Source: a virus | Length of the DNA: 64,000 bases | Reading direction: 5' to 3' (one strand) | Virus record (IMG/VR): IMGVR_UViG_3300045988_103180 | Shown: in pieces, positions 30,227-41,708 of the stretch | Layout of the letters: each line of letters opens with the position of its first letter | Position numbering within the stretch: the first letter of the stretch is position 1 | Program-made: the position numbers and the translations under genes | Notes under the pieces: generated by a model | What the model saw: only the letters and a program-made list of their open reading frames with translations | The model's database searches: none | What the model was told of the DNA's origin: nothing

Positions 30227-30256
30227 ATAAAATAGGTTATTATGAAAGGATGATAT

Positions 30257-31069: not shown

Positions 31070-31165
31070 CTAATTGGGCAAATGATTATAATCTTTTGCC
31101 CACATTTTTTATATATTTTTAAGCAATCGTCTTGTCGTATAGGAATAGAAAGAGGAATTATCCGA

Positions 31166-31939
31166 ATGAAATTCATTAAAAACAAAACGAAAGCATTGGC
31201 TATGTGCCTATCCGTAGTGGCACTCGCTGGCGTGACAAATGCTTTTTGTGTAAACGAAGCAAATGCAATTATCGTTAATGATGAAATTACAAATGCGGCA
31301 GTCCGCACAACTACACTTGATGCTATGATTCCATATAAGGAAGATGGGTACGATAACGCTCAGACATGGCTAGTGGATAAATGTAACATGAAAGACTCAC
31401 AGTTTGATGATGTTATATATATTATTCAGAATTACGGAGATTATCTTGAACAGAATGATATTTTAGAGATTCAAGATATTATGGAGAAGCAATCTGTTTG
31501 CGACACTATTACAGAACTAAAGCAATATAAGGCTCGACTTGATAGCTGGAAACAGTATGGTGCAGATAAGAAACAGAAAGCTCTCCAAGAGAAGAAAGAA
31601 GCAGAAGAACGTGCGGCTCAAGAAGCTGCTGCTCAAAAAGCTGCGGCGCAGGTAAGTTATCAGAATCAACAGTCTAACTCATATAGTACATCAAGCTATT
31701 CATATTCTGGCTACTCTTGGAATGGCTCTGCACGTGATTTCATTGTTTCTAAGGAAAGTGGTGGTAGTTATAGTGCCACCAATGGACGCTACTATGGCGC
31801 ATACCAGCTTGATATTTCCTATTTGAATGGAGACTTGTCGCAGGAAAATCAAGACAGGGTTGCTGAGCAATATGTGTCAAATAGATATGGTAGCTGGGAA
31901 AATGCTGCCGCGCACTGGCAGTCTCATGGTTGGTACTAA
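31166..31939 (+). CDS. secreted protein with C-terminal APF/transglycosylase-like domain
   Basis: Signal peptide MKFIKNKTKALAMCLSVVALAGVTNA. C-terminus KESGGSYSATNGRYYGAYQLDISYL...RYGSWENAAAHWQSHGWY resembles Lactobacillales aggregation-promoting-factor tails. Confidence 0.6.
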   Translation: MKFIKNKTKALAMCLSVVALAGVTNAFCVNEANAIIVNDEITNAAVRTTTLDAMIPYKEDGYDNAQTWLVDKCNMKDSQFDDVIYIIQNYGDYLEQNDILEIQDIMEKQSVCDTITELKQYKARLDSWKQYGADKKQKALQEKKEAEERAAQEAAAQKAAAQVSYQNQQSNSYSTSSYSYSGYSWNGSARDFIVSKESGGSYSATNGRYYGAYQLDISYLNGDLSQENQDRVAEQYVSNRYGSWENAAAHWQSHGWY

Positions 31940-31958
31940 AATATTTTCAATAAAATAG

Positions 31959-31987
31959 TTGACTTCTAGAAAAATATTTGTTATAAT
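31959..31987 (+). promoter_or_regulatory. sigma70-type promoter
   Basis: TTGACT-17-TATAAT. Confidence 0.55.
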
Positions 31988-32032
31988 ATTAACGAAATTA
32001 AAGGAACAAAAGAATTAAAAGGAGAATGGTAA

Positions 32033-32452
32033 ATGGCAGAATCTTATGGTTTAAACTTTAATTTAGCTATGACTACAAATGAGGATGGTGTTGTAGACCT
32101 AGGTGTACATGTAACCGATTCTGACGGTCTTGACCTAGACCATAAAGCTAGTGGCAAAGATGCTATGAAGGTTATTGATGAGCTAACTAGTACTCTTACG
32201 CGCGAGCTTATGATTGTATCTGATGACCGCAAGCAGAAGAAGGATAAGGAACAGGCTAAAAAGATTAAGAAGGAGCGCGAAGAGCGTGCGGCTAAGCTAG
32301 CTGATCTCAAGTCTCAGGCTGAGAAAATCAAGAAGCAGATTGAGGAAATCGAAAAGGACACTAAGGATGCAAAGACTGTCCGCACAAGCCGTCCTTCCTA
32401 TGAGTCTCTTCTTGACCAGGATTTTGCTCGTCTACTAAAGCTATTTAGTTAA
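32033..32452 (+). CDS. hypothetical Lys/Glu-rich coiled-coil protein
   Basis: 139-aa ORF behind AAAGGAG. Confidence 0.45.
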   Translation: MAESYGLNFNLAMTTNEDGVVDLGVHVTDSDGLDLDHKASGKDAMKVIDELTSTLTRELMIVSDDRKQKKDKEQAKKIKKEREERAAKLADLKSQAEKIKKQIEEIEKDTKDAKTVRTSRPSYESLLDQDFARLLKLFS

Positions 32453-32461
32453 AAAAAGTTC

Positions 32462-32490
32462 TTGCCAAGAGCTTTAAGAAGTTATATAAT
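32462..32490 (+). promoter_or_regulatory. sigma70-type promoter
   Basis: TTGCCA-17-TATAAT. Confidence 0.5.
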
Positions 32491-32517
32491 ATAGTTAAAG
32501 AAAGAGAGGAAGGTATC

Positions 32518-32868
32518 ATGGATTTGTTTGTCAAAGATAAATATTACAATATTGACTCGAAGCGCGACTTGGACGTTTGCTTGAAAGAGAACGGCTTCAA
32601 TTATGATGAACTTGAGAATGTGATACTTTCCTATCATGCGGCAGATTATGCGCATGGCGTTGAAGGTCTAATTGGCGATGATTTATACGAGACACAGCAC
32701 GCTATCAACTCTGAGTTGAGTGACTTGGAAAACGAGATTAAGAATCTTAATGGTCGTTCGTGCAAGAATAACACTCGTGCGGATATTGCGAATCGACTTA
32801 GTGATATTTACGCCAATCTTATGGACTTAAACCTTTCCTGCCAAGTATATGACAGGGATACGCTGTAA
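32518..32868 (+). CDS. hypothetical protein
   Basis: 116-aa ORF behind GAGAGGAAGG. Confidence 0.45.
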   Translation: MDLFVKDKYYNIDSKRDLDVCLKENGFNYDELENVILSYHAADYAHGVEGLIGDDLYETQHAINSELSDLENEIKNLNGRSCKNNTRADIANRLSDIYANLMDLNLSCQVYDRDTL

Positions 32869-32878
32869 GGAGCTTTTT

Positions 32879-33412
32879 ATGGGACAAGACATTCATGTTT
32901 ATCTTGCTCGCAAGACTAGCGAGTATGCACAGAAGAATGGATGCGAAGAGTATTATCCGGTAGAGTTATTTTCTAAGTATTATAACAATGATGATGATAG
33001 TGTCGTGTATGAATATGCCCAGCCATACAATGGTCGCAATTATGAGCTGTTTTCTTGGCTCATGGATGGCAATGGTCGTGTATATGTAGATGAATCTGCT
33101 TGCCCCGTTGGTCTGTATTTTGACTATGATGGTCTTGTGCCGCAAAAGATTCTTAAAGAATGGGAAGACTGGGAAGAGGGCGGCGCATATGGATATAATG
33201 CTGTTATGCTCTCTGATATTATCAATCATTATAATGCAATTAGTTCTACTAAGTATGCGGTCGATGATATGCTTGGAAGTCATTCCTCTAACAATGAGCT
33301 TAAAGATAGTATCGGTGATTTCATCGAAGACATCAAGCGTTATTGTAGCATTGAAGGAGCATATTATCTAACTCCGCAGGATATTCTTGTTGTCTATTGG
33401 TTTGATAATTAA
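32879..33412 (+). CDS. hypothetical protein
   Basis: Start at the ATG at 32879 behind AAGGAG. 177 aa. Confidence 0.45.
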   Translation: MGQDIHVYLARKTSEYAQKNGCEEYYPVELFSKYYNNDDDSVVYEYAQPYNGRNYELFSWLMDGNGRVYVDESACPVGLYFDYDGLVPQKILKEWEDWEEGGAYGYNAVMLSDIINHYNAISSTKYAVDDMLGSHSSNNELKDSIGDFIEDIKRYCSIEGAYYLTPQDILVVYWFDN

Positions 33413-33421
33413 AAAAAGTTC

Positions 33422-33451
33422 TTGACAGACTTTATATCAATATGATATAAT
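33422..33451 (+). promoter_or_regulatory. sigma70-type promoter of the first tRNA transcription unit
   Basis: TTGACA-18-TATAAT. Confidence 0.55.
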
Positions 33452-33585
33452 ATTTTTAGTTACAAAATAAAAGTTCTGGACAAAAAGTTATAATTTTTGT
33501 TGCGCAACTTTTATATTGTAATAGTGGTGTTAGAGCCTGCAAGATTTCTAGAGTATTGCAGGCTCATTTTCTTTTAACATTCTGA

Positions 33586-33658
33586 GCTGCCGTAGCTCAA
33601 CTGGCAGAGCAGCTGATTTGTAATCAGCAGGTTGTAGATTCGATTTCTATCGGCAGCT
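33586..33658 (+). tRNA. tRNA-Thr(TGT)
   Basis: Acceptor GCTGCCG/CGGCAGC, D-arm GCTC..GAGC, anticodon loop TTTGTAA, T-loop TTCGATT. Confidence 0.85.
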
Positions 33659-33775
33659 CAGAGTGCTAATCTTAGACACTCTCCAAGTGGTAGTAGACCG
33701 AGCTTTGAACTCGCCTGTACTACCCCAAGTCAATTTTAGCGGTTTGGACAGTCGCTATATAAATTTGTCCATTTT

Positions 33776-33848
33776 TGGCTCTTCTTCTAACGGAATAGGA
33801 AAGTGCGCTCTGACCGCATTAATGAAAGTTCGAGTCTTTCAGAGCCAG
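33776..33848 (+). tRNA. tRNA-Gln(CTG)
   Basis: U1-A72 acceptor TGGCTCT/AGAGCCA (Gln-like), anticodon loop CTCTGAC, T-loop TTCGAGT. Confidence 0.6.
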
Positions 33849-33866
33849 CCTAGTTAAAAAAATTAC

Positions 33867-33895
33867 TTGACAAATACCAAGTAATTTTATATAAT
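33867..33895 (+). promoter_or_regulatory. sigma70-type promoter driving the permuted tRNA-like RNA 1
   Basis: TTGACA-17-TATAAT. The -35 lies in the palindrome AATTACTTG..CAAGTAATT. Confidence 0.55.
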
Positions 33896-33901
33896 ATAGT
33901 T

Positions 33902-34000
33902 AACAAATCGTGATGGTGAAGGTTCAGGTTCGACTCCTGCCGCTGTCCGACAAGGACGGCGTAGTTTCAATTGGTGAGAATAGCACCTAGCGATTGTGTT
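33902..34000 (+). ncRNA. circularly permuted tRNA-like RNA 1 (YrlA-class Y-RNA candidate)
   Basis: Terminal stem AACAAATCG/CGATTGTGTT with one bulge, then UGAU. T-arm CAGG-TTCGACT-CCTG. 8-bp acceptor-like stem CGCTGTCC/GGACGGCG closed by GACAA. D-arm GTTT-CAATTGGTGA-GAAT. Confidence 0.55.
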
Positions 34001-34370
34001 ATATCCAATGCTTGGGGAGAGGTTATCGCTGCAAGGTAAATGTCTCCCGACTTCTATAATCTTTTGCAGGGATTATAGATTAAAGGGTTGGCGGTTTTCC
34101 CAGTTTGAAACCGTCCACGTGATTATATTATCTTGCTTGCAAGATTTTATATATGCCGGCTCTGTAGCCGTAGACAATGCGGGCCAGCGCATACTTGAAA
34201 AGAAGCGCCTAGGGGAAGAGGAATCTGGTATATTTTGGTAGTTTTCAAACCTCTGCAGATGTGAAAACTACTACTTTAATTGCGGGTGGGAGGTCAGTAT
34301 CTCACGGAGTCTCATAAGCTCTGTTAAGTTTCGGCAGCAGAAACACCTCGCGACCAATTTTTGTTATAAA
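34001..34370 (+). ncRNA. ORF-free, hairpin-dense RNA segment of unknown class
   Basis: G+C-richer than its surroundings. Hairpins GGGGAGA..TCTCCC, TCTATAATC..GATTATAGA, ATCTTGC..GCAAGAT, GTAGTTTTCA..TGAAAACTAC. No RBS-preceded ORF. Confidence 0.35.
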
Positions 34371-34377
34371 AAATTAT

Positions 34378-34407
34378 TTGACAAATAGTTGAATAATTTG
34401 ATATAAT
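34378..34407 (+). promoter_or_regulatory. sigma70-type promoter
   Basis: TTGACA-18-TATAAT, within the palindrome AAATTATT..AATAATTT. Confidence 0.55.
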
Positions 34408-34569
34408 ATATCTAGAAGGAAAGGGAAAAAGGATAGTCAACAGTACCGTCAACAAACCAGTGACCCTGCGGCTTATTGCCAACACCCAGAAGTGTAATGC
34501 TTAGTACGCTGTTAGGTTTGACCATTTGTTTTCTTCTAGTGTAGTAAACCAAGAGAAAGGTAAGAAAGT

Positions 34570-34710
34570 ATGGCACAGTCAATCGAGACGATGGAACAGC
34601 GTTATCAGATGCTACTTAACCGCAAAGGTAAGAACTCAGAAAATGTAGGCATCATGCGCAAGCTACGCCGCAAGATTAACAAGGCAAAGCAGGGTGTCAT
34701 TCTTTCCTAA
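34570..34710 (+). CDS. hypothetical 46-aa basic protein
   Basis: Below the ORF-track cutoff. Leader CCAAGAGAAAGGTAAGAAAG before the ATG. MAQSIETMEQRYQMLLNRKGK... Confidence 0.4.
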   Translation: MAQSIETMEQRYQMLLNRKGKNSENVGIMRKLRRKINKAKQGVILS

Positions 34711-34724
34711 TTAAGTTTATTTAT

Positions 34725-34822
34725 TATGCGTGATGAGGGTTCAGTTACTTCGTGAAGATTTTATGGGATATTTTAAATGCGGTACGCTGCATTTGTTAGT
34801 CTGACCCCAATTTTTCCGCATA
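34725..34822 (+). ncRNA. repeat-family structured RNA, copy R0
   Basis: P1 TATGCG/CGCATA, UGAU, P2 GGGTTCAG/CTGACCCC, TTACTTCG, AATTTTTC. Confidence 0.55.
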
Positions 34823-34893
34823 TTTTTTCTTGACTTCTGGTCTATGTATATTATGATATAATATACATAGACCAAGAGAGAAAGAGGTTTGTT

Positions 34894-35049
34894 ATGAAGC
34901 AGTTCGTCATTTGTCGTGAAAAGACCTGCGGTATCTATTCAATTCGTGTCAACACTGATTGTTCTACTGTTCGTTTTGAGATAATCAAAGATTTCGACAC
35001 GTTTGAAGATGCAGACAACTACCTTCATAATATTCTTCTATATAAGTAA
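34894..35049 (+). CDS. hypothetical 51-aa protein
   Basis: Below the ORF-track cutoff. Leader CCAAGAGAGAAAGAGG. MKQFVICREKTCGIYSIRV... Confidence 0.4.
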   Translation: MKQFVICREKTCGIYSIRVNTDCSTVRFEIIKDFDTFEDADNYLHNILLYK

Positions 35050-35059
35050 TTCATTCTAT

Positions 35060-35128
35060 TGGAGTGTAATTCAGTTGGTAGAATGTTGTTAACTCAACGT
35101 GTCGCAGGTTCGAGTCCTGTCACTTCAA
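35060..35128 (+). tRNA. tRNA-like gene, Asn-paralog with truncated anticodon arm (pseudo-tRNA or mimic)
   Basis: Same acceptor 5' strand (TGGAGTG) as tRNA-Asn, with good D and T arms. Only 19 nt separate the D and T arms (4-bp stem GTTG/CAAC, 6-nt loop). Confidence 0.4.
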
Positions 35129-35157
35129 TAGAACAAAACGTGGCTTATCTACCCTGC

Positions 35158-35229
35158 TGGAGTGTAGCTCAATGGTAGAGCCTGCGGCTGTTAACCGCAT
35201 TGTTGTAGGTTCGAGTCCTACCATTCCAG
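35158..35229 (+). tRNA. tRNA-Asn(GTT)
   Basis: U1-A72 acceptor TGGAGTG/CATTCCA, anticodon loop CTGTTAA, T-loop TTCGAGT. Confidence 0.85.
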
Positions 35230-35280
35230 CAGAGTAGATAGCTACTCAATTTATCCAAAAGTAGAAAAGGAGCTTTGTAA

Positions 35281-35727
35281 ATGTCGTATCCTTATAAGGA
35301 TGAAGTATTGGCAACTAAATATGCTTATATTCCCGATGATGCGGCCAATGCTCCCGCTCGCAAAAAGAAAAAGACAGTGAAGAAAGCCAATCATAAGCAC
35401 GCTTACGATAAGAGTATTGTTATCAATTACTTTGATAAGTACGCTGGCACATGGACTTATGCCTATAGGAATGTTTGTACTATTTGCGGTCGTATCGGTG
35501 ATTTTGTTGATAATGAGGGAATTATCAAAAAGACTTTCCCGCATGTCAAGCCTAGCTGGTTTGGTTTTGCTGTTTCTTTTGGATATAACGATGAATTTGC
35601 TGAATTTACCGAGTGGTCAAAGACTTGGTATCCTCTGATTATTTGGAAAGACTATCAGCCTTTGGATGACAAGTTTATTCCAGACGAGTTTTTTGATATG
35701 CTTGGGATTCAGAAACAAACCAATTAA
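35281..35727 (+). CDS. hypothetical protein embedded in the tRNA island
   Basis: 148-aa ORF behind AAAGGAG. CTICGR. No family recognised. Confidence 0.45.
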   Translation: MSYPYKDEVLATKYAYIPDDAANAPARKKKKTVKKANHKHAYDKSIVINYFDKYAGTWTYAYRNVCTICGRIGDFVDNEGIIKKTFPHVKPSWFGFAVSFGYNDEFAEFTEWSKTWYPLIIWKDYQPLDDKFIPDEFFDMLGIQKQTN

Positions 35728-35731
35728 AGAT

Positions 35732-35825
35732 GCGCCGGCACTCCGATTGGCCTTGAGAGCGGGGACTCAAAATCCTTTGGCGGTAACCATTCCGCATGTC
35801 GGTCCGAATCCGACCCGGCGTACCA
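35732..35825 (+). tRNA. tRNA-Leu(CAA), type II, CCA encoded
   Basis: Acceptor GCGCCGG/CCGGCGT, anticodon loop CTCAAAA, long variable arm GCGG..CCGC, T-arm GTCGG-TCCGAAT-CCGAC. Confidence 0.6.
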
Positions 35826-35827
35826 TT

Positions 35828-35912
35828 GCCGCAGTATTCCTTTAAAGACGAGGGGAAGACTGTAAATCTTCTGTCTATGACTGGCTAGGAGCGTTACCTA
35901 GATGCGGCACCA
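35828..35912 (+). tRNA. tRNA-Tyr(GTA)-like gene with non-canonical T-loop and D-arm, CCA encoded
   Basis: Anticodon arm GAAGA-CTGTAAA-TCTTC is canonical. The T-arm CTAGG-AGCGTTA-CCTAG lacks TTC, and the 7th acceptor pair is mismatched. Confidence 0.35.
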
Positions 35913-35920
35913 ATGTTTAT

Positions 35921-35996
35921 TAAATGCGTGATTAAGATTCAGTTACTTCGTATGGGCTTATGTATTGTAACACTGAATCTAACTTTTCCGCATTTA
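35921..35996 (+). ncRNA. repeat-family structured RNA, copy R1
   Basis: P1 AAATGCG/CGCATTT, UGAU, P2 AGATTCAG/CTGAATCT, TTACTTCG, AACTTTTC. Confidence 0.55.
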
Positions 35997-36008
35997 TTTG
36001 TTTACCAT

Positions 36009-36114
36009 AATGCGTGATAATAAATCAGTTACTTCATTCTGGAAAAATGCGCTTGCAGGTTCGACTCCTGCTCTGTATCGGTATACATTTTACTGATTTA
36101 GCCTTTTCCGCATT
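36009..36114 (+). ncRNA. repeat-family structured RNA, copy R2 (carries a T-arm-like insert)
   Basis: P1 AATGCG/CGCATT, UGAU, P2 TAAATCAG/CTGATTTA, TTACTTCA. Insert GCAGG-TTCGACT-CCTGC plus hairpin TGTAT-cggt-ATACA. Confidence 0.55.
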
Positions 36115-36130
36115 TACTTTATTAAAGTAG

Positions 36131-36212
36131 GCGATACGTGATAACGTTTCAGATACTTCAAATCTCCATTCTGAGCTGATTACTCAAACTGAAACACCTA
36201 TTTCCGTATCGC
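36131..36212 (+). ncRNA. repeat-family structured RNA, copy R3
   Basis: P1 GCGATACG/CGTATCGC, UGAU, P2 GTTTCAG/CTGAAAC, ATACTTCA. The insert shares CATTCTGAGCTG with the tRNA-Thr 5' end. Confidence 0.55.
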
Positions 36213-36222
36213 TTTCTCTTGT

Positions 36223-36334
36223 GCGGCAAGTGATTAGTAAAGAGTTACTTCGTTATATGATATGTTTAAATAAGAGCAACTTTCACTAGAAAGAGGCAAC
36301 CCCACCTATACTCTTTACACTTTTTCCTTACCGT
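36223..36334 (+). ncRNA. repeat-family structured RNA, copy R4
   Basis: P1 GCGGCAAG/CTTACCGT (one mismatch), UGAU, P2 GTAAAGAG/CTCTTTAC, TTACTTCG, ACTTTTTC. Confidence 0.5.
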
Positions 36335-36386
36335 TATTTGTAAACCCCTTTCTCGCCTATATAGTGTGCGAGCTATATAGACACAA

Positions 36387-36467
36387 ATGTGCGTGATTAT
36401 TATTCAGTTACTTCATATAGCAATTTTTATGACCATCCAACACTGAATAAACTTTTTCCGCACACAT
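36387..36467 (+). ncRNA. repeat-family structured RNA, copy R5
   Basis: P1 ATGTGCG/CGCACA(ca)T, UGAU, P2 TTATTCAG/CTGAATAA, TTACTTCA, ACTTTTTC. Confidence 0.55.
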
Positions 36468-36478
36468 TGATATTTTAT

Positions 36479-36506
36479 AGGGACTCTTTTGAGTCCCTAT
36501 TTTTTG
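36479..36506 (+). terminator. rho-independent terminator
   Basis: AGGGACTC-tttt-GAGTCCCT followed by ATTTTTTG. Confidence 0.6.
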
Positions 36507-36536
36507 TTGACTATTGGCTATATATTATGCTATAAT
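36507..36536 (+). promoter_or_regulatory. sigma70-type promoter
   Basis: TTGACT-18-TATAAT. Confidence 0.55.
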
Positions 36537-36563
36537 ATATTTAAGAAATCGAAAGGAGATTCA

Positions 36564-37100
36564 ATGAGCATCTTTGTAGTCAGTGACACTCATTTTTCGC
36601 ATCAGAATATTATCAATTATTGTGAGAAGTCGCGTGCTTTTAATACGGTTGATGACATGAACGAAGACATCATCGAAAGGTGGAATTCCGTTGTATCTCC
36701 TGATGATACTATCTATCATCTTGGTGATTGCTTCATGGGACCGCTTGAGACTGTAGCTAAATATGGTTCTCATCTCAATGGAAAGGTTCATGTGATTCCC
36801 GGCAATCATGATACCAAGAAACGCATTGCTGAAATGGAAAAGCTCGGCTGGATTATTGAAAACAAGGTATCTTGTCTTGATTACAATGATGTCAGTTTCA
36901 TTATGATTCACGAGCGCCCCGAGGAAATGCGTGGAGACAGCGCCAATGTCATTCTATACGGTCATGTTCATGATGCGGCTCCCAAGGGCCTTGTTGATTG
37001 GACATATCATGTAGGTGTTGACACTAATAATCTTACTCCTGTTAATATTCATGACATTTGGCTCGATGTCCAGCAGAAGAAGATTGAGCTTGGAGAGTAA
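36564..37100 (+). CDS. calcineurin-like metallophosphoesterase
   Basis: MSIFVVSDTHFSH, YHLGDCF, IPGNHD, GHVH. Start at 36564 behind GAAAGGAG. Confidence 0.75.
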   Translation: MSIFVVSDTHFSHQNIINYCEKSRAFNTVDDMNEDIIERWNSVVSPDDTIYHLGDCFMGPLETVAKYGSHLNGKVHVIPGNHDTKKRIAEMEKLGWIIENKVSCLDYNDVSFIMIHERPEEMRGDSANVILYGHVHDAAPKGLVDWTYHVGVDTNNLTPVNIHDIWLDVQQKKIELGE

Positions 37101-37101
37101 A

Positions 37102-37296
37102 ATGGAAGTCAAGCATAAGGTCCAGCGTATCTGCGGCAATTGCAGATTTTACAAAAATTGCAGTTGCTATCGCTTTCCTCCAAATGTAATTATTGACCCA
37201 ACAGATTATAATATCTATACAGTACATCCTTCACCGCAAAGTGGAGATAGGTGCGGTGAATGGGCAATTCATCCTAAATTGGAGAAATATGAGTGA
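37102..37296 (+). CDS. hypothetical zinc-ribbon-like protein
   Basis: 64 aa behind GGAGAG. CGNCRFYKNCSC...GDRCGEW. Confidence 0.4.
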   Translation: MEVKHKVQRICGNCRFYKNCSCYRFPPNVIIDPTDYNIYTVHPSPQSGDRCGEWAIHPKLEKYE

Positions 37297-37561
37297 AATG
37301 TGTAGTATGCACCTTAATAAAATGACTGCTATGATTCTTGATTTCATTGTGTACCTTAGTCAGCAGAAAGATATTGAGAAGATTGTAGATAAACTTAAAA
37401 AGGTTGACCGTGCTGTTTTCCATGACCTTGTTGTAAATGCTATGGAAAAGAATCCTTCTCATACTAGCACTTATTGTGCTGAGCAGTTATGGAACATGGC
37501 TCCACTTACATCTTTAGCTCTCTTGGATTGGCTTAATAATTTCAACGAATTTTATGCCTAA
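37289..37561 (+). CDS. hypothetical protein
   Basis: 90-aa frame from the ATG at 37289 behind GGAGAAA. Confidence 0.4.
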   Translation: MSEMCSMHLNKMTAMILDFIVYLSQQKDIEKIVDKLKKVDRAVFHDLVVNAMEKNPSHTSTYCAEQLWNMAPLTSLALLDWLNNFNEFYA

Positions 37562-37568
37562 TTTTTTC

Positions 37569-37598
37569 TTGACTTTTGGTTAAAAGATATGCTATAAT
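37569..37598 (+). promoter_or_regulatory. sigma70-type promoter
   Basis: TTGACT-18-TATAAT. Confidence 0.55.
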
Positions 37599-37630
37599 AT
37601 AGTTAAAGAAACCAAGAGAAAGAAGAAATA

Positions 37631-37804
37631 ATGGTTGAAGCGACTAATATATGCGGTAATTGCAAATATTATGAGTCTACAGACCTTTGGTATCTAGGCA
37701 TTTGCCGCAAGCATTTAATTGATGACGAACCTGACAAGGTATGCGTTAATGATTGGATGTGCAATGATGGAGAGTATGACGAAGAGGAATACAATGGAGA
37801 TTAG
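37631..37804 (+). CDS. hypothetical 57-aa Cys-rich protein
   Basis: Below the ORF-track cutoff. Leader AACCAAGAGAAAGAAG. CGNCKYYES...GICRKH...CVNDWMC resembles ORF 37102. Confidence 0.4.
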   Translation: MVEATNICGNCKYYESTDLWYLGICRKHLIDDEPDKVCVNDWMCNDGEYDEEEYNGD

Positions 37805-37955
37805 TAAATCTGACCGTGACACATACTTTGACCTGCTTTATGATATGTACGATGCCGACTTGGTTGATGTTGCTTTAGAGACTCTTGGCGAGAATGAGCT
37901 GCTTGATGGCATTCCTGCTATGCTTAAAGACTATTATTTTGACGAAGATTGCTAA
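37794..37955 (+). CDS. hypothetical acidic protein
   Basis: The ATG at 37794 overlaps the upstream stop. 53 aa. Confidence 0.35.
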   Translation: MEISKSDRDTYFDLLYDMYDADLVDVALETLGENELLDGIPAMLKDYYFDEDC

Positions 37956-38855
37956 ATGAAAGTAGCGGTTATGAATTTTAAGACTTTTGAAGGAAATTCT
38001 GGCGATATATGGAAGTATGTCTTTACGAAAGAAGATATGGTCGCCGAAGCGGTTCTATATAAATATAATAGTTACTACGATAGAACTGTAATTTGTTGCA
38101 GCGTTATGAGTGGTTGTCCTGTTGGATGTCTCTTTTGCGGCACTGGTTCTAAATTTGTTAGGAATCTTACTGCTGATGAAATTGTAGATCAGATTGTAAC
38201 CGTCTTAACTAATAAAGGTTTAATTAATGACATTAATGAAAAGTGTAAAAAATTACAGTTTATGTTTATGAGCATGGGTGAGCCTATGTTAAATTGGGTA
38301 GAAGTTGAAAAAGCAATTGTCAATCTTCATAAAAAGTTTAGTAATGCTCAGTTACTACTTTCGACTATTGGCTGTGATAATGATGAAACTTTTGCAAAGA
38401 TGATTGCTCTATCTAAGAAGATAGATAAAATTGGTTTGCAATTTTCTATTCATAAGTCCAATGACGCAGAGCGGAATGTGTTAATTCCATTCAAGAAGAA
38501 AATGAATCTTCAAAAGATTAGGGATGTTGGAACTGTTTGGTGGAAAGAAACCGGTAGGCATCCATTCTTAAACTACTGCATTGATGGAACGAATAATGAA
38601 GATAAGAACTTTAAAGAACTTACAGACCTGTTTTCTCCTGTAATCTTTAATTTTACTTTTAGTGTAGTTTGCGCATCTGATGAAACTATGAAAGATGCTG
38701 CGTTTAGAAACTTAGATGTTATTAAGAAGTTTCAGGATAAGTTCTTAGAAAAGGGTTATAATGTAAGGACATTTGACCCAGCTGGTCAAGATGATATTGG
38801 TGGTGGGTGCGGCCAGCTTTGGTATGTTCAGAAGTGGCTAAAGTCTCACCAATAG
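37956..38855 (+). CDS. RlmN/Cfr-family radical-SAM RNA (adenine C2/C8) methyltransferase, N-terminally short
   Basis: SGCPVGCLFCGTGSKFVRNLTADEIVDQIV (RlmN GCALECKFCSTAQ..RNL..EI..Q), FMSMGEPMLN, and the C-terminal catalytic Cys region GQDDIGGGCGQLW. Confidence 0.7.
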   Translation: MKVAVMNFKTFEGNSGDIWKYVFTKEDMVAEAVLYKYNSYYDRTVICCSVMSGCPVGCLFCGTGSKFVRNLTADEIVDQIVTVLTNKGLINDINEKCKKLQFMFMSMGEPMLNWVEVEKAIVNLHKKFSNAQLLLSTIGCDNDETFAKMIALSKKIDKIGLQFSIHKSNDAERNVLIPFKKKMNLQKIRDVGTVWWKETGRHPFLNYCIDGTNNEDKNFKELTDLFSPVIFNFTFSVVCASDETMKDAAFRNLDVIKKFQDKFLEKGYNVRTFDPAGQDDIGGGCGQLWYVQKWLKSHQ

Positions 38856-38876
38856 TTTAAAAGCAGTTACAGTAAT

Positions 38877-38948
38877 GCGAAATTCGTACAACGGTTAGGA
38901 CATCCTGCTTATAACGGGAAGACGAAAGTTCAACTCTTTCATTTCGTA
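38877..38948 (+). tRNA. tRNA-Ile(TAT)
   Basis: Acceptor GCGAAAT/ATTTCGT, anticodon arm TCCTG-CTTATAA-CGGGA, T-arm GAAAG-TTCAACT-CTTTC. Confidence 0.7.
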
Positions 38949-38963
38949 CCTCTAACTTTTTTC

Positions 38964-38993
38964 TTGACAATTGCATATTGAATATGATATAAT
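38964..38993 (+). promoter_or_regulatory. sigma70-type promoter driving permuted tRNA-like RNA 2 and the tRNA cluster
   Basis: TTGACA-18-TATAAT. Confidence 0.55.
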
Positions 38994-39003
38994 ATAGTTA
39001 TCA

Positions 39004-39097
39004 AGTCGAGCATAGAGCAGATGTGGGTTCGACTCCCATCCTTGCCCGACAAGGGCGAGGTAGTTTAATTGGTTAAATACGGTTCTTACGTTCGACT
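39004..39097 (+). ncRNA. circularly permuted tRNA-like RNA 2 (YrlA-class Y-RNA candidate)
   Basis: Terminal stem AGTCGAG/TTCGACT. T-arm GTGGG-TTCGACT-CCCAT. 8-bp acceptor-like stem CCTTGCCC/GGGCGAGG closed by GACAA. D-arm GTTT-AATTGGTT-AAAT. Confidence 0.55.
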
Positions 39098-39214
39098 AGA
39101 TATATAGAAAATATAGGAAATAGCTTAACCCTATATTTTCAACTTCTAAAGCCTAGCTAGCTTTAGATTAAAAGGTTCGCAACTATCCTTAAAATGGTTG
39201 CCACTAGTGACGGT

Positions 39215-39286
39215 GTGTTAGTAGTTTAACTGGCAGAATTGCAAGGTGACGTTCTTGAGATTGGAGTTCGAATCTCCACTAGCGCA
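39215..39286 (+). tRNA. tRNA-like gene with 8-nt anticodon loop (Val-GAC-like)
   Basis: Acceptor GTGTTAG/CTAGCGC (two G-U pairs), D-arm GTTT..GAAT, T-arm TGGAG-TTCGAAT-CTCCA. The anticodon stem CAAG/CTTG encloses GTGACGTT. Confidence 0.4.
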
Positions 39287-39294
39287 CGAAAATT

Positions 39295-39369
39295 TCTCTA
39301 TGGTGTAATTGGCAGCACAACGGATTTTGGTTCCGTTAGTTTATGTTCGAGTCATAATAGAGAAGCCAA
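39295..39369 (+). tRNA. tRNA-Gln(TTG), CCA encoded
   Basis: U1-A72 acceptor TTCTCTA/TAGAGAA, anticodon arm ACGGA-TTTTGGT-TCCGT, T-loop TTCGAGT. Confidence 0.8.
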
Positions 39370-39373
39370 CATG

Positions 39374-39446
39374 TCCATGTAGCTCAGTAGGTAGAGCAGC
39401 AGACTGAAAATCTGCGTGTCGGTAGTTCAATTCTACCCGTGGACAC
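39374..39446 (+). tRNA. tRNA-Phe(GAA)
   Basis: Acceptor GTCCATG/CGTGGAC, anticodon arm GCAGA-CTGAAAA-TCTGC, T-loop TTCAATT. Confidence 0.85.
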
Positions 39447-39454
39447 CTTATATG

Positions 39455-39526
<72 letters not shown>

Positions 39527-39541
39527 CCTTTAGTTTTCTTT

Positions 39542-39615
39542 GGCAGTGTAGCTTAGATGGTTAGAGCGCACGGCTCATACCCGTGAGGTCATTAGTTCAA
39601 ATCTAATCACTGTCA
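39542..39615 (+). tRNA. tRNA-Met/Ile2(CAT)
   Basis: Acceptor GGCAGTG/CACTGTC, anticodon arm CACGG-CTCATAC-CCGTG, T-loop TTCAAAT. Confidence 0.85.
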
Positions 39616-39623
39616 CCTTATAT

Positions 39624-39708
39624 GCGGCTATGGCGGAAGTGGCAGACGCGCTAGCTTTAGGTACTAGTGGGGAAACCCATGCAGGTTCGATTCCTGCTAG
39701 CCGCACCA
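39624..39708 (+). tRNA. tRNA-Leu(TAG), type II, CCA encoded
   Basis: Acceptor GCGGCTA/TAGCCGC, anticodon loop TTTAGGT, variable arm GGGG-aaa-CCC, T-arm GCAGG-TTCGATT-CCTGC. Confidence 0.75.
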
Positions 39709-39723
39709 AGTATTTTGTTTTGA

Positions 39724-40500
39724 ATGGATGTAATTATGTGTAATTATATTGACCACATTGATGCTGTTATTACTCATTATTGTAATTTTAACTGTCCTTT
39801 TTGTATTGATAAATTTAAAACAAATATTAAGAATCCTCAGAATGAATTTAATAAAGAATATTTTAATGATTTTTTAAATTCTTTAAATAAAAAAGAAAGT
39901 TCTGGCGATATTAAGATTAATTCTAATCGTGAGGTTCTATTTTTGGGTGGTGAACCAACAACTGTTGGTTTTAATTTACTGAAGGATTATGCTAATATTG
40001 TTAGTCGTAATGGTTTTCATCCAATTATATCAACTAATGGTGTTGATAAAAACACAATTAAAAAGATTCTTCCATATTTCGATTGGGTACAGGTAACGGC
40101 TCATAGCAAGAAAGAGATTGATGAATGGCGTACGTATAATACGTATGGGAATATCAATCTTAAAATTGCTGGAGATAGTCATTTTACGTATGATAAGTTA
40201 AATTATTTAATTGATAATTGTAAAGATTTTACTCGTCGTAGCGTATCCATGTATTTTACAAAAGATTTTGTTGAATTATGTAAAGATAAAGAAATTTGGA
40301 ATCTTTTAGATTCTTTAAATAATTGGAAAACCAATGGAAGTTACGAGTATGCTTTTTATAAAGATGTTCGTATTAAGAAATGTATACATGGATTAACAAA
40401 TATTATTGATGAACCCACTGTCCCAAAGATTTATGATAAGAAATATAATAAAACATGGGATAATGAAGAATTAGATGATTATTTAAATCTATTTATATAG
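39724..40500 (+). CDS. radical-SAM enzyme of unknown specificity
   Basis: CNFNCPFC (CxxxCxxC) near the N-terminus. VLFLGGEPT SAM-binding motif. Very AT-rich codons. Confidence 0.65.
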   Translation: MDVIMCNYIDHIDAVITHYCNFNCPFCIDKFKTNIKNPQNEFNKEYFNDFLNSLNKKESSGDIKINSNREVLFLGGEPTTVGFNLLKDYANIVSRNGFHPIISTNGVDKNTIKKILPYFDWVQVTAHSKKEIDEWRTYNTYGNINLKIAGDSHFTYDKLNYLIDNCKDFTRRSVSMYFTKDFVELCKDKEIWNLLDSLNNWKTNGSYEYAFYKDVRIKKCIHGLTNIIDEPTVPKIYDKKYNKTWDNEELDDYLNLFI

Positions 40501-41251
40501 TTTAAGACAGTATTAAATACAGAATAATGATAACTCGCAGCGCTTCTTTATAGCGAAACTTGACAGAGAGAGGTTTAATACTGTTTATAATGGGGGCATG
40601 GATATAGTCATGATGTAGCTAGATTCTCATGGATGATGACAGCTTAACCAATTCTGGTTCGAGTCCAGGCGTGTCTTAGCTTAGACGGAAAATAAGCAGC
40701 CATGTGTTTATGATTATGTTATTTTGCAAAAGACATGTAGTGTAATTGGCAACACGCCCTACTTTCGGAGTAGATAACCAGCGGGGAGCTGGGTTTGCCT
40801 GCTAAGCAAAACGTGCTTATTATAAGCATTCGGGTCGGAACCGAATTACTCCGCCATATAATACCTGCCCCTATTGGCAGTGGTTTTTAAGATTTTCCCG
40901 AAAAAAATCTTTTGCGGTAGAATAGGCAACGCCGCACAGCTATTCGAGAGGATAGCGAGCCTTCTCGCTAGGAGATAAGCGAGTGCTTTCACGGAGTAAT
41001 TGGTGAGCTGAAACACCGTAAAAACAGACCCTCTGGATGCGCCGTGAATACGCATCCTGCTTTGGCTAATCAACTGGTCCAGCGACTAGGCCCGCCTAGA
41101 AAGCGGTGCGTTCCCAAGAGGGAATGGAGGGCAGCACTTCGGTTAGCCGCCATAAGGAAGCAGAACCGGACCAGTGTTCGGACTCGCCTCGAAAGCGATG
41201 TGTCCCGCGAGGGATGGGTAGCGTCAACTCCTGCTTCTGCCATATATTACG
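40501..41251 (+). ncRNA. large ornate structured RNA (GOLLD/ROOL-class candidate) with an embedded permuted tRNA-like module
   Basis: About 750 nt, G+C-richer, no RBS-preceded ORF. Many short hairpins, several tetraloop-capped (TCCC-gcga-GGGA, TTCCC-aaga-GGGAA, GGATGCG..CGCATCC, AGCGAG..CTCGCT). Long-range pair ACAGTATTAAA (40507) / TTTAATACTGT (40575). Confidence 0.5.
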
Positions 41252-41289
41252 TAGGGTAACTTCTTTTATAGAAGTTACCCTATTTTTTT
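41252..41289 (+). terminator. rho-independent terminator
   Basis: TAGGGTAACTTC-ttttata-GAAGTTACCCTA followed by TTTTTTT. Confidence 0.7.
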
Positions 41290-41290
41290 A

Positions 41291-41320
41291 TTGACATACA
41301 GCAATTCAAAATGATATAAT
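41291..41320 (+). promoter_or_regulatory. sigma70-type promoter
   Basis: TTGACA-18-TATAAT. Confidence 0.55.
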
Positions 41321-41354
41321 ATATTTAAAGAAAAGCCAAGAGAAAGGTTATCTC

Positions 41355-41708
41355 ATGAGCAACACCGATGATATGCTTTATGAACAGTGTAAGTGTATTT
41401 CAGAAGAACTTGATGAACTTGTAGACAAATATAATAATTCTGATGACTGCGATGAATTCATAGAATATTTTGACGATAACTATGGAATTGACTATATATG
41501 GCGTATGGGTGTAGGCCTTATCGGTGTGCGCGTTCTTGTTGCTTTTGGTGGCCCCAATATCTATATTGATACTTTTGATGGCGTTGTCCGTGGCTACTGG
41601 GGCAGCACGCAGTCCTATCCTTTGCATTATAATGTAGTTGATACTCTCAATGACTATTTTGAGGATTGCGCGGCAGAAAATATTTATTTTGATAGTCATC
41701 GTAATTAA
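41355..41708 (+). CDS. hypothetical acidic protein
   Basis: 117-aa ORF behind the leader GCCAAGAGAAAGG. Confidence 0.45.
   Translation: MSNTDDMLYEQCKCISEELDELVDKYNNSDDCDEFIEYFDDNYGIDYIWRMGVGLIGVRVLVAFGGPNIYIDTFDGVVRGYWGSTQSYPLHYNVVDTLNDYFEDCAAENIYFDSHRN

Follow-up and report, generated by a model that had tools for sequence, protein, structure and literature searches.

YrlA RNAs and their phage relatives

Y RNAs of the YrlA class (Rfam RF02553; Salmonella structure PDB 6CU1; Chen et al. 2014, Wang et al. 2018) partner the protein Ro60 and are the reference for the RNA analyzed here. In these molecules a V region, a T-arm, a closed acceptor stem-loop, and a D-arm follow one another, with tRNA-invariant nucleotides, and the anticodon-like stem is continued by a stem made of the RNA's own ends, which is the Ro60-binding module. 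The V region starts with a YUAY motif and a GNCGAAN0-1G motif lies near the 5' end. RNAs of the class are also bound and stabilized by Ro60/Rsr and contain pseudouridine 55 and dihydrouridine. YrlA genes are expected within 4 kb of the Ro60 gene and on the same strand (PMC4201824), and the same study warns that tandem tRNAs are false positives for the class.

Phages also have such systems. Y RNA-like RNAs adjoin the Ro60 genes of mycobacteriophages, of the Caulobacter phage CcrColossus, and of Bacillus phage G (Chen 2014, PMC4201824), and CcrColossus is named among the YrlA-carrying phages in a paper on Thermus phage phiLo (PMC12135203). The latter encodes Yrl1 and Yrl2 with phiRo60; these are stem-bulge-stem RNAs with a CGAA motif, for which no tRNA mimicry is described (PMC12135203).

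We analyzed a stretch of 64,000 nucleotides of viral DNA (IMG/VR record IMGVR_UViG_3300045988_103180, hereafter the window). Metagenomes are the sole source of this phage. A search among GenBank phages revealed no close relatives of the window, the matches being limited to 50-nt stretches of tRNAs, and GyrA provided no useful indication of the host. At 38997-39107, the window encodes a small structured RNA whose fold is that of an inside-out tRNA. We regard it as probably a YrlA-type Y RNA-like molecule, i.e., a circularly permuted tRNA mimic, and it has one paralog in the phage. It fits as a divergent addition to the described class, not as a new kind of RNA, and by analogy with the known systems we infer that it would bind Ro60.

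Fold, conservation, and promoter of the RNA

The MFE fold of the RNA is exactly the cloverleaf (-40.3 kcal/mol, z = -4.87), and none of 200 shuffled sequences was as stable. The 8-bp acceptor hairpin is closed and the 5' and 3' ends open at the anticodon side, in agreement with the circularly permuted tRNA-like RNA that the original prediction had announced at 38964-39097. Every motif it listed was found where it had been placed, while the 5-bp anticodon-like stem (AGAGC/GTTCT) was missing from its list. Beyond a 2x3 internal loop, this stem continues as a helix of 12 bp that ends at the RNA termini. The helix consists of an 8-bp core (AGTCGAGC, 39004-39011, with GTTCGACT, 39090-39097) and a 4-bp outward extension (TATC, 38999-39002, with GATA, 39099-39102). 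An ORF scan of the region found no plausible frame covering the RNA. The pattern GTTCGANTCC-N10-CGACAAG-N7-TAG has two matches in the window, for 0.00 expected. The features are collected in Table 1.

Table 1. Window coordinates of the RNA, its parts, and the associated elements.
Feature	Position	Strand	Evidence or content
tRNA-mimic RNA (T-arm, closed acceptor stem, D-arm)	38997-39107	+	Rfam YrlA, covariance model R1, MFE fold
Terminal stem, 5' strand (TATC-A-AGTCGAGC)	38999-39011	+	pairs with 39090-39102
Anticodon-like stem, 5' strand (AGAGC)	39014-39018	+	pairs with GTTCT, 39082-39086
T-arm (GTGGG-TTCGACT-CCCAT)	39023-39039	+	T-loop invariant; stem covaries
Closed 8-bp acceptor hairpin (CCTTGCCC-GACAA-GGGCGAGG)	39040-39060	+	pairing kept in orthologs
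D-arm (GTTT-AATTGGTT-AAAT), directly after T8 A9	39063-39078	+	AATTGGT invariant
3' strands of anticodon-like and terminal stems (GTTCT-TAC-GTTCGACT-A-GATA)	39082-39102	+	MFE fold, ortholog pairing
Conserved three-hairpin 3' extension, with linkers ACTTCTA (39142-39148) and TAGATTAAAAGGTT	39108-39202	+	common to sister 34015-34117
Promoter (TTGACA, 18-nt spacer, TGnTATAAT)	38964-38993	+	12/12 consensus with TG, promoter scan
tRNA cluster	39215-39708	+	ARAGORN and Rfam
Paralogous unit	33867-34117	+	promoter 33867-33895, tRNA-mimic RNA 33899-34006, three-hairpin extension 34015-34117
Six stem-bulge-stem units	34722-34826, 35920-35997, 36006-36118, 36128-36216, 36218-36338, 36384-36468	+	motif matches
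TROVE/Ro60-family protein, 486 aa, presumed partner	17291-18751	-	Pfam TROVE 56.5 bits vs cutoff 23

This architecture is not new, since a cloverleaf with a closed acceptor is the very definition of YrlA (T-arm, closed acceptor stem-loop, D-arm, terminal stem). The RNA matches the order and spacing of the class (PMC4201824; 10.1101/312249), down to the anticodon-like stem continued by the paired ends, and shares with it the conserved T-loop, the GG of the D-loop, U8, and the A15:U48 pair. The elements of the tRNA L-shape in the RNA are G18, G19, the T-loop UUCGA, U8, A14, and A15:U48, the last being a possible Levitt pair read directly from the sequence. GTCGAG at 39005-39010, towards the end of the terminal stem's 5' strand and thus at the position expected for the motif, is a partial match (five of six positions) to the YrlA motif GNCGAA and also resembles the metazoan GGUCCGA; the orthologs read ATCGAG at this site (four of six) and the sister locus ATCGTG.

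There are also differences from the class. The V region lacks the YUAY motif with which it starts in YrlA, AGAT alone separating the inner stem from the T-stem. The acceptor stem has 8 bp (7 plus the -1:73 pair), whereas it has 6 bp in Salmonella YrlA and 7 bp in that of Mycobacterium smegmatis. The RNA is extended at its 3' end by three additional hairpins, lies behind a sigma-70 promoter of its own, and is the first element of a tRNA operon. Contrary to the 4-kb, same-strand rule, and unlike the known phage Y RNAs, which are directly upstream of the Ro60 gene, it lies 20 kb from the TROVE gene on the opposite strand, within an island of tRNA and RNA-repair genes. The module of CcrColossus is similar in that it has an 8-bp closed acceptor hairpin (with a GCAA loop) and stands beside a tRNA gene.

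The Rfam YrlA model matched over its full length at 38998-39106, aligned end to end, with 32.4 bits, which is below the gathering threshold of 69. Two adjacent ordinary tRNAs of the window (35083-35211) obtained 36.2 bits with the same model, more than the RNA, and thus the Rfam match proves nothing by itself. The TROVE-adjacent phage modules used as positive controls scored much as the RNA did and were below the threshold too (CcrColossus 42.3 bits, L059 42.2, and L030 32.0). At gathering cut-offs, the Rfam scan of the window reported tRNAs alone. The covariance model built in the present analysis (R1) gave 134 bits at 38997-39107.

Two-piece (permuted) tmRNA, which occurs in alpha-proteobacteria and cyanobacteria, has the T-arm and the 3' acceptor strand encoded upstream of the 5' acceptor strand, as is the case here, but it has a D-loop without a D-stem, whereas the RNA has a full D-arm. 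It also has a tag reading frame and pseudoknots 3' of the 5' acceptor strand, none of which we noticed here. We rejected tmRNA and permuted tmRNA as identities: ARAGORN was negative, and the Rfam tmRNA model matched only the 15 nt of a T-loop (7.8 bits).

The original prediction had argued from compensatory changes between the two loci that the structure is under selection, and had suggested a covariation analysis including metagenomic homologs. We ran this analysis and found the pairing kept through many double changes. Among the two window loci and four orthologs, 95.1% of the cells were paired, vs. 42-48% when partners were slid, and 20 pairs were altered on both sides, vs. 2-5. MAFFT joint alignments of both paralog groups misplace the 3' strand of the terminal stem. 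Hence, we analyzed the orthologs of the 38997-39107 locus alone (A5) and also used a model-guided alignment (A6). In the seven orthologs, the acceptor hairpin was 100% paired, with both-sided changes in four of its eight pairs, and the anticodon-like stem was likewise 100% paired and shows in L004 a double change from G-C to A-U. The terminal helix was 92.9% paired, and position 39005, which is in a G:C pair in the window, shows A.C in five of the seven. An alignment of 22 sequences (the two window copies and 20 variants from related phages) was 92.1% paired with double changes at 18 pairs, values to be read knowing that this alignment was fitted to the model whose pairing it measures.

The conservation expected for the T-loop and the D-loop was found. 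The T-loop (TTCGACT) is invariant in all 21 aligned variants, in a stem that covaries, and so is the D-loop AATTGGT among the aligned variants. The GACAA cap, put forward as a further conserved feature, did not hold: the loop varies freely and the 8-bp stem alone is kept. The cap reads GGCAA, GATAG, GATAA, or TTATC in orthologs of the locus and CAATGA, AGTTAA, or GCAA in those of the sister. We thus rejected GACAA as a functional cap. Matches to a strict GACAA pattern were confined to this phage clade. A loose pattern gave 111 loci, most of them ordinary tandem tRNAs without a closed acceptor hairpin, as judged by a test that measured pairing directly around GACAA only; a scan with a structural descriptor showed that L030, L042, L059, L079, and L090 of these 111 have closed acceptor hairpins of 7-8 bp, with part of GACAA included in the stem. 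A tRNA-His-like G-1:C73 identity was also rejected, as the closing -1:73 pair of the acceptor stem is G:C in the window and L157 and A:U in four other orthologs.

The locus is present in 7 of the 13 related phages examined. Around more divergent versions of the flanking radical-SAM gene (L150, L151, L153, and L154; 49-66% identity), the RNA was not found within 7 kb. L143 has a chimera between the RNA and a tRNA.

The RNA is preceded by the consensus promoter that had been predicted at 38964-38993, and its score is perfect for sigma-70. The -35 box occupies 38964-38969, the extended -10 box ends at 38993, and transcription is predicted to start around 38997-39000. The TATAATATAGTTA leader also precedes protein genes in related phages and is thus part of the promoter, not of the RNA. 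As anticipated, the locus stands at the head of the tRNA cluster, whose genes start at 39215. A terminator scan of 39097-39215 flagged no separate terminator, the acceptor hairpin (39040-39060) being the only match inside the unit. Since there is no terminator between the promoter and the cluster, the RNA and the tRNAs are likely co-transcribed.

The sister locus, phage Ro60, and a survey of TROVE loci

The original prediction had likened the locus to another at 33902-34000. The two are indeed paralogous, as shown by their alignment and by the R1 score of the sister RNA (57 bits, E = 2.5e-12), which has no match to the Rfam YrlA model. The sister copy is a stand-alone unit, unattached to tRNAs, and its promoter also scores 12/12. 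A weak terminator-like hairpin can be seen by eye after it (34130-34150). While the elements described for 38964-39097 stood, its extent did not: the conserved unit is longer and includes, in both paralogs, the three-hairpin 3' extension, in which helices 6-8 have both-sided changes in six pairs. The prediction had also considered that pairing might not be conserved, or that the region might be a degraded tRNA remnant. At 38997-39107 the pairing is kept; at the sister locus, many relatives have a decayed cloverleaf interior, acceptor hairpin included.

As in YrlA systems, the genome has a Ro60 ortholog together with a second related RNA. Like the phages with Y RNA-like RNAs named above, the phage encodes Ro60 and two or more putative partner RNAs. 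The best PDB match of the TROVE protein is the Ro60 of Thermus phage phiLo (9KOP/9L5Y, E = 1.8e-22); phmmer aligned the two over residues 13-392, including the DVSGSM MIDAS motif, in agreement with the HEAT-repeat ring and the MIDAS-bearing vWA domain that characterize Ro60/Rsr. It scored 16.8 bits with the NCBIfam Rsr equivalog (cutoff 900), and is thus a distant homolog. Its gene forms a tight promoter-ORF-terminator unit, the perfect promoter being at 18818-18789 and the terminator at 17274-17251, and a model search with filters off revealed no Y RNA beside it. Co-regulation of the Ro60 gene with both RNAs is plausible given that their perfect promoters are of identical type. Among the 15 IMG/VR contigs of the clade with the RNA, 12 also encode TROVE and the remaining three are shorter, partial contigs (93-100 kb). 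Besides at least 13 tRNAs, the region holds genes for a T4 Rnl1-like ligase, a PNK-like kinase, a SpoU methylase, and PhoH, and for an Rnl2-like ligase 2 kb from the Ro60 gene. This repair-gene context echoes the bacterial rsr-yrlBA-rtcBA operon. A structured stretch at 40.5-41.35 kb had no match in Rfam.

We tested the association of closed-acceptor modules with TROVE on 65 diverse phage TROVE loci, comparing the 1 kb upstream of TROVE on the same strand with the remaining 1.5 Mb. We found 26 closed-acceptor modules in the former and 4 in the latter, an enrichment of about 150-fold; one or more modules occur at 23 of the 65 loci. The acceptor stems of the 26 modules have 7 bp (11 modules), 8 bp (8), 6 bp (4), 9 bp (2), or 10 bp (1). 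The 8-bp stem of the RNA is typical among these TROVE-adjacent modules. In none of the 15 TROVE loci of its own clade is the RNA upstream of TROVE.

Canonical phage modules lie within the frame stem1-UGAU-stem2-RGWUACUUCR...UUUUCC-stem1', with UUAC present inside RGWUACUUCR, a motif that recurs beside phage Ro60 genes in the survey. UGAU, RGWUACUUCR, and UUUUCC are all absent from the 38997-39107 locus, and the sister locus retains only CG followed by UGAT. The six stem-bulge-stem units between 34722 and 36468 bear GTGAT, RGWTACTTCR, and TTTTCC, the motifs that flank Ro60 genes in other phages. These units are probably part of one RNA repertoire with the tRNA-mimic RNAs and may be the real Ro60 binders.

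Possible roles and alternative readings

From the sigma-70 promoter, transcription most likely continues into the tRNA genes, in which case tRNA-processing nucleases would have to release the RNA. By analogy with Salmonella, Mycobacterium, Deinococcus, and phiLo, it may work with the Ro60 ring protein of the phage. The stem end would then dock on Ro60, or gate it, and the tRNA-like elbow might recruit an effector, such as a 3'-5' exoribonuclease (host PNPase) or tRNA-handling or repair enzymes. The outcome could be an RNA quality-control or repair particle of the phage, active during infection beside its tRNAs, RNA ligases, PNK-like kinase, and SpoU methylase. The acceptor hairpin might also be opened by RNase P and then receive CCA, as in the YrlA of M. 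smegmatis.

Another possibility, which we find doubtful but tenable, is that the RNA descends from a YrlA and now acts alone, as a tRNA mimic independent of Ro60. It might serve as a decoy or sponge of a factor recognizing the tRNA elbow or the acceptor-T minihelix. Such a factor could be RNase P, the CCA-adding enzyme, one of the modification enzymes, or a host defence nuclease that targets tRNAs; anticodon nucleases do not qualify, since the RNA has no anticodon loop. A role as an element for processing or stability of the tRNA operon that it heads is another option. Its position as the 5'-most element of this operon, within the tRNA island, points in this direction, as does the lack of UGAU, UACUUC, and UUUUCC, kept by the six other units. 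The T-loop and the D-loop are its most conserved parts, and the 2018 structure paper proposed for YrlA a factor that binds the D and T stems (10.1101/312249). These points have to be set against the strong enrichment of such modules beside TROVE genes, the retention of a Ro60 gene in the genome under the same type of promoter, and the sister copy, which stands apart from tRNAs.

It is very improbable that the RNA is a non-functional remnant of tandem tRNA copies, joining the 3' half of one copy across a spacer of 5 nt to the 5' half of the next. If both copies came from the same tRNA gene, this would explain the complementary acceptor strands, and the tRNA genes of the window have the appropriate spacing (4-6 nt) and do not encode CCA. 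Tandem tRNAs mimic the YrlA model, and the chimera in L143 links the RNA to a tRNA. Yet a remnant would hardly account for a perfect promoter, for terminal and anticodon-like stems that are closed and covarying, for an acceptor hairpin fully paired through four double changes, or for a 3' extension conserved in both paralogs. Unlike in tandem tRNAs, the 8-bp acceptor hairpin is perfect, and neither ARAGORN nor Rfam called a tRNA on either side of the closed-acceptor module. This reading is already disfavored by the covariation. Tandem tRNA copies may well be the origin of the YrlA class itself.

The acceptor hairpin followed by TAGTTTAATT might instead be an intrinsic terminator or attenuator controlling read-through into the tRNA cluster, which we consider very unlikely. 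A simple scan does flag 39040-39060, where six of the eight pairs are G-C and five of the next eight bases are T. However, the U-tract is poor, its tail being the conserved U8-A9 plus the D-stem, and what lies 3' of the hairpin (the D-arm and both closing stems' 3' strands) is conserved and covaries with what lies 5', which places the hairpin inside the functional RNA. Many phages have the same hairpin shortly before the TROVE coding region, and it does not end the unit there.

It is scarcely credible that the locus is a true circularly permuted tRNA gene, whose transcript would be closed into a circle across the terminal stem and opened again within the acceptor loop to yield a functional tRNA. 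Such genes were reportedly found by Soma et al. in 2007 in the red alga Cyanidioschyzon merolae. The order (3' half, linker, 5' half), the acceptor stem of 7+1 bp, and the canonical T and D arms would suit them. The algal genes have a bulge-helix-bulge and regain a 7-nt anticodon loop when the ends are joined, whereas inspection of the fold showed neither, the helix being continuous with its 2x3 internal loop. No splicing endonuclease was found among the window ORFs scanned, and none is known in bacteria or phages. ARAGORN calls nothing at 38997-39107. The resemblance to permuted tRNA genes has been noted for YrlA in general (10.1101/312249).

One joint reading goes further than the YrlA assignment and we hold it to be rather improbable: the Y RNA would have been dismantled and rewired in this phage lineage. 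The Ro60-docking frame (UGAU, UACUUC, and UUUUCC) would survive as the six separate units, and the tRNA-mimic module would have become two independent RNAs, each with a new extension and one of them the first 'gene' of a tRNA operon. RNase P would open the 8-bp acceptor hairpin and CCA would be added, giving a split tRNA mimic. This mimic, Ro60, the PNK-like kinase, and the ligases of Rnl1 and Rnl2 type would together make up a tRNA surveillance and repair machine against host tRNA-cleaving defences.

The tRNA-mimic Y RNAs of phages escape standard annotation, all the phage examples scored here being below the Rfam threshold, and it is easy to take them for a new sort of 'permuted tRNA' or to dismiss them as noise from tandem tRNAs. 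The survey provides a diagnostic for them, namely a closed acceptor hairpin of 6-10 bp between the T-arm and the D-arm. The module need not adjoin a Ro60 gene, as a tRNA operon is also a possible home, and this widens the set of places in which to look for such RNAs. A phage that has, besides tRNAs of its own, Ro60, two tRNA-mimic RNAs, RNA ligases, and a kinase offers a compact setting for the question of what the YrlA elbow binds.

Fold and conservation of the tRNA-mimic RNA

The RNA is genuine and had been accurately observed. All the motifs listed in the original prediction for 38964-39097 are present when the sequence is read directly, and the consensus promoter assigned to it (TTGACA/TGnTATAAT) scored 12/12 in a promoter scan. 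We found an additional 5-bp stem, AGAGC/GTTCT, absent from that first list, which occupies the anticodon-stem position of a tRNA and links the cloverleaf with the terminal stem. The minimum free energy fold of 38998-39106 is exactly the four-way junction (-40.3 kcal/mol, z = -4.87), and none of 200 shuffles was as stable. The pattern common to this RNA and its paralog at the sister locus (33867-34117, + strand) has two matches in the window vs 0.00 expected, and an ORF check found no reading frame accounting for the 38964-39107 region.

No close isolate phage was found in GenBank. Relatives were gathered by pattern scans and by searches around the flanking radical-SAM gene, and form a population of phage contigs of ~140 kb, most of which come from a single metagenome. 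From the two loci together, nhmmer and a covariance model, R1, recovered 22 distinct variants. Across both window loci and four orthologs, 95.1% of the cells in eight helices are paired, vs 42-48% with partners slid, and 20 pairs are double-changed, vs 2-5 when slid; the compensatory change claimed between the two loci was thus borne out by aligning them with homologs. Seven orthologs of this locus gave 95.4% (29-48% slid) with 7 double-changed pairs, and 22 model-aligned sequences, in an alignment that had been fitted to the model itself, gave 92.1% (34-45% slid) with 18. In the seven orthologs the acceptor hairpin is 100% paired, with four of its eight pairs double-changed. Since pairing is kept through two-sided changes among orthologs, this is a real structure on which selection acts, and these alignments demonstrate both the fold and its conservation. 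The GACAA cap, also said to be conserved, did not hold up: the acceptor loops differ among orthologs both here (GGCAA, GATAG, GATAA, TTATC) and at the sister locus (CAATGA, AGTTAA, GCAA), and the cap has no special weight. At the sister locus, many relatives have lost the cloverleaf fold of the interior but retain the terminal stem, T-loop and D-loop.

These data bear on what else the locus might be. The acceptor hairpin was flagged as terminator-like by a scan, but a role as terminator or attenuator is very unlikely, as conserved, covarying sequence goes on 3' of it. Tandem tRNAs are plausible as the evolutionary origin of the RNA, yet its covariation and dedicated promoter make a mere decayed remnant of them highly improbable. 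Least credible is a true permuted tRNA gene, given that the anticodon loop is absent.

The conserved unit exceeds its first description: three more covarying hairpins follow on the 3' side in both paralogs, connected by the conserved linkers ACTTCTA and TAGATTAAArGGTT. A weak terminator-like hairpin, seen by eye, closes the sister unit. At this locus the scan flagged no separate terminator ahead of the tRNA genes at 39215-39708, so transcription probably continues into them. The Ro60 gene and both RNAs have the same perfect promoter type, whose TATAATATAGTTA leader also heads protein genes and is therefore part of the promoter, not of the RNA. Two scanned stretches (16000-22500 and 33400-41500) contain nine or more sigma-70 consensus promoters with a perfect 12/12 score, most with an extended -10 TG, and a downstream ATATAGTTA is also common to those that were read. 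They are a strong phage promoter class serving the Ro60 gene, Y-like RNAs and protein genes.

Table. Features of the window and of related phage contigs
Feature	Position	Strand	Remarks
Promoter of the RNA	38964-38993	+
tRNA-mimic RNA	~38997-39107	+
Terminal stem	this locus	+	AGTCGAGC/GTTCGACT, lengthened outward by TATC/GATA
T-arm	this locus	+	GTGGG-TTCGACT-CCCAT
Acceptor hairpin, 8 bp	this locus	+	CCTTGCCC-GACAA-GGGCGAGG
TA, then D-arm	this locus, 3' of acceptor hairpin	+	GTTT-AATTGGTT-AAAT
Three-hairpin 3' extension	39108-39202 (this locus); 34015-34117 (sister locus)
TROVE-domain ORF	17291-18751	-	Pfam TROVE 56.5 bits, cutoff 23
Rnl2-like ligase	20725-21657	-	2 kb from Ro60 gene
PNK-like AAA_33 kinase	22508-23020
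SpoU methylase	25041-25613
PhoH	26222-27187
Deaminase	27527-27970
T4 Rnl1-like ligase	28766-29713
Metallophosphoesterase	36489-37100
Two radical-SAM proteins	37956-38855, 39724-40500
Six stem-bulge-stem units	34722-34826, 35920-35997, 36006-36118, 36128-36216, 36218-36338, 36384-36468	+
Perfect promoters	17244-17216, 18818-18789, 19671-19642	-
Perfect promoters	22061, 33422, 33867, 34378, 38964, 41291	+
Modules in tRNA clusters of other phages	L041 12290-12356; L042 6199-6264, 7311-7376; L079 3832-3898, ~4051; L090 ~10097

Relation to YrlA and to phage Ro60 loci

Among the bacterial Y RNAs that bind the Ro60 ortholog Rsr, YrlA is the subclass that mimics tRNA, and its published definition combines four elements: T-arm, closed acceptor stem-loop, D-arm, and an anticodon-like stem that the two ends of the RNA close (PMC4201824). 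All four elements are present here. Over its full length the Rfam YrlA model aligns to 38998-39106, at 32.4 bits (gathering score 69), but this score alone is no evidence because two ordinary neighbouring tRNAs (35083-35211) reach 36.2 bits; Chen et al. caution against this tandem-tRNA artefact in YrlA matching (PMC4201824). The case was therefore built on other tests. The terminal stem has CG|AGCAT, the sister locus retaining CG|TGAT, and its GTCGAG matches the bacterial GNCGAA motif at 5/6 positions and is also similar to metazoan GGUCCGA.

The window encodes a protein with a TROVE (Ro60-family) domain, whose best solved-structure match, Ro60 from Thermus phage phiLo (9KOP/9L5Y), spans residues 13-392 at E 1.8e-22 and aligns at the MIDAS DVSGSM motif. 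That protein binds two phage-encoded Y RNA-like RNAs, assembling with host PNPase (PMC12135203). Ro-like proteins of Caulobacter, Streptomyces, Brevundimonas, Xanthomonas and other phages are distant relatives of the window's protein, with identity below 30%. The window's gene is a self-contained unit between its perfect promoter (18818-18789) and a terminator (17274-17251), and a model search found no RNA candidate next to it.

We then searched phage TROVE loci with a structural descriptor: a T-arm, directly a perfect hairpin, 2 nt, and a D-arm containing GG. Applied first to all loci collected, it recovered the module of CcrColossus, which has an 8-bp stem and a GCAA loop and adjoins TROVE gp139; modules within tRNA clusters of unrelated phages; and two modules, in contigs L059 and L030, each sharing the strand of a TROVE gene and lying directly upstream of it. 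We took 80 TROVE loci from IMG/VR with a four-protein alignment, out of at least 536 matching stretches; counts refer to the 65 outside the window's clade. The first kilobase upstream of TROVE, read on the same strand and adding up to 63 kb, holds 26 closed-acceptor modules (T-arm, closed acceptor stem-loop, D-arm; T-AS-D), vs only 4 elsewhere in 1.5 Mb, both strands counted, a ~150-fold enrichment. Under a strict rule (perfect stem of at least 6 bp), 23/65 loci have at least one. Stems are of 7 bp (n=11), 8 bp (n=8), 6 bp (n=4), 9 bp (n=2) or 10 bp (n=1), with mostly tetraloops; hence, the 8-bp, 5-nt hairpin of our RNA is ordinary among phage Ro60-associated RNAs. On Rfam YrlA, these modules adjacent to TROVE reach 32-42 bits, a range into which this RNA also falls.

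The canonical phage frame runs stem1, UGAU, stem2, RGWUACUUCR, ~15 nt, T-AS-D, stem2', N-CUUUUCC, stem1', and contig L179 exemplifies a tRNA-like module inside it. RGWUACUUCR occurs 108 times within 1 kb upstream of TROVE, at 51/65 loci, vs 21 times elsewhere. In the window's clade nothing was found upstream of TROVE (0/15 loci), and frame and tRNA-like module are separated into different RNAs. Six stem-bulge-stem units, in tandem or close together, have the full frame with invariant GTGAT, RGWTACTTCR and TTTTCC; they lack the tRNA-like module, with a lone T-arm in one. RNAalifold gave 17 pairs, 10 of them double-changed, and no Rfam family matched. Judging from these motifs, the units appear to be the phage version of the Y RNA frame that docks Ro60, arrayed in tandem at a long distance from the Ro60 gene. 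Both tRNA-mimic RNAs have simplified terminal stems. Because frame motifs and tRNA mimic are split here, direct Ro60 binding by the RNA is likely but not secure; a tRNA mimic acting independently of Ro60 is conceivable, though we consider it unlikely.

Neighbouring RNAs and the RNA-metabolism island

The ORF-free, GC-rich stretch 40766-41290 (+) is a large structured phage RNA adjoining the tRNA cluster, 85-89% conserved in relatives (including L139 9070-9610); RNAalifold gave 165 pairs, 25 double-changed. Its first ~95 nt form a class-II tRNA-like cloverleaf with a long variable arm, an odd D-arm, an invariant loop CTGCTAA with anticodon GCU (Ser) and an encoded GCCA end, missed by ARAGORN and Rfam. 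Next comes a closed multi-helix RNA of ~370 nt whose loops include GAAA, GAGA and UUCG; Rfam gave no match to it at E<=10, and a strong terminator (41251-41290) ends it. At the 5' edge, in the window's genome only, a ~175-nt insertion (40597-40771, +) contains a third permuted tRNA-like piece (R1 19.5 bits, E 0.015): T-arm TCTGG-TTCGAGT-CCAGG with the 3' acceptor strand, then 52 nt of loop and the complementary 5' strand of 8 nt, AAGACATG, followed by TA and the D-arm GTGT-AATTGGCA-ACAC. This piece shows no evident closing stem and may be a module that has decayed or was newly acquired.

The tRNA at 39215-39287 (+) is an ARAGORN 'tRNA-???' with a four-base anticodon (gacg) and just 35.1 bits on Rfam tRNA. 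Its anticodon loop fits either an 8-nt or a 6-nt drawing. Relatives conserve it at the head of the tRNAs that follow the Y-like RNA (L139 8493-8565), and a frameshift-type or non-decoding tRNA is conceivable. In contig L143 (8297-8480), the promoter, 5' stem strand, T-arm and 3' acceptor-like strand (…GGTTCGACCCCCTGACGGCCCACC) of an RNA of the sister-locus type are joined straight to a tRNA gene, without D-arm and closing strands, a chimera that indicates recombination between tRNA-mimic RNAs and tRNAs. Rfam calls a tRNA at 35060-35128 that ARAGORN missed, and ARAGORN's tRNA-Cys (24515-24586) and tRNA-Leu-CAA (35732-35825) are both under the Rfam tRNA threshold, the latter weakly matching the tRNA-Sec model (27.5 bits). 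T-AS-D modules with closed acceptors of 7-9 bp also occur in tRNA clusters of unrelated IMG/VR phages, placed similarly to the window's arrangement, with no TROVE gene within the few kb fetched; the L079 cluster also has an above-threshold Rfam 'cow-rumen-4' RNA (2152-2219, 67.7 bits vs 48.5).

The stretch at 20-40 kb forms an island of RNA metabolism, with at least 13 tRNAs scattered through its repair and modification genes (20725-40500). It parallels the bacterial rsr-yrlB-yrlA-rtcB-rtcA operon. As a Ro60-associated Y RNA, we infer by analogy, the RNA would take a tRNA-shaped L fold, its stem end docking with the Ro60 ring and its elbow recruiting an exoribonuclease or tRNA-handling enzymes; RNase P might cut the RNA and CCA might be added, as in M. 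smegmatis. The RNA is a divergent new member of an already known class, with an unusual organisation: it is uncoupled from the Ro60 gene, lies inside a tRNA operon and is split from the Ro60-locus motifs.
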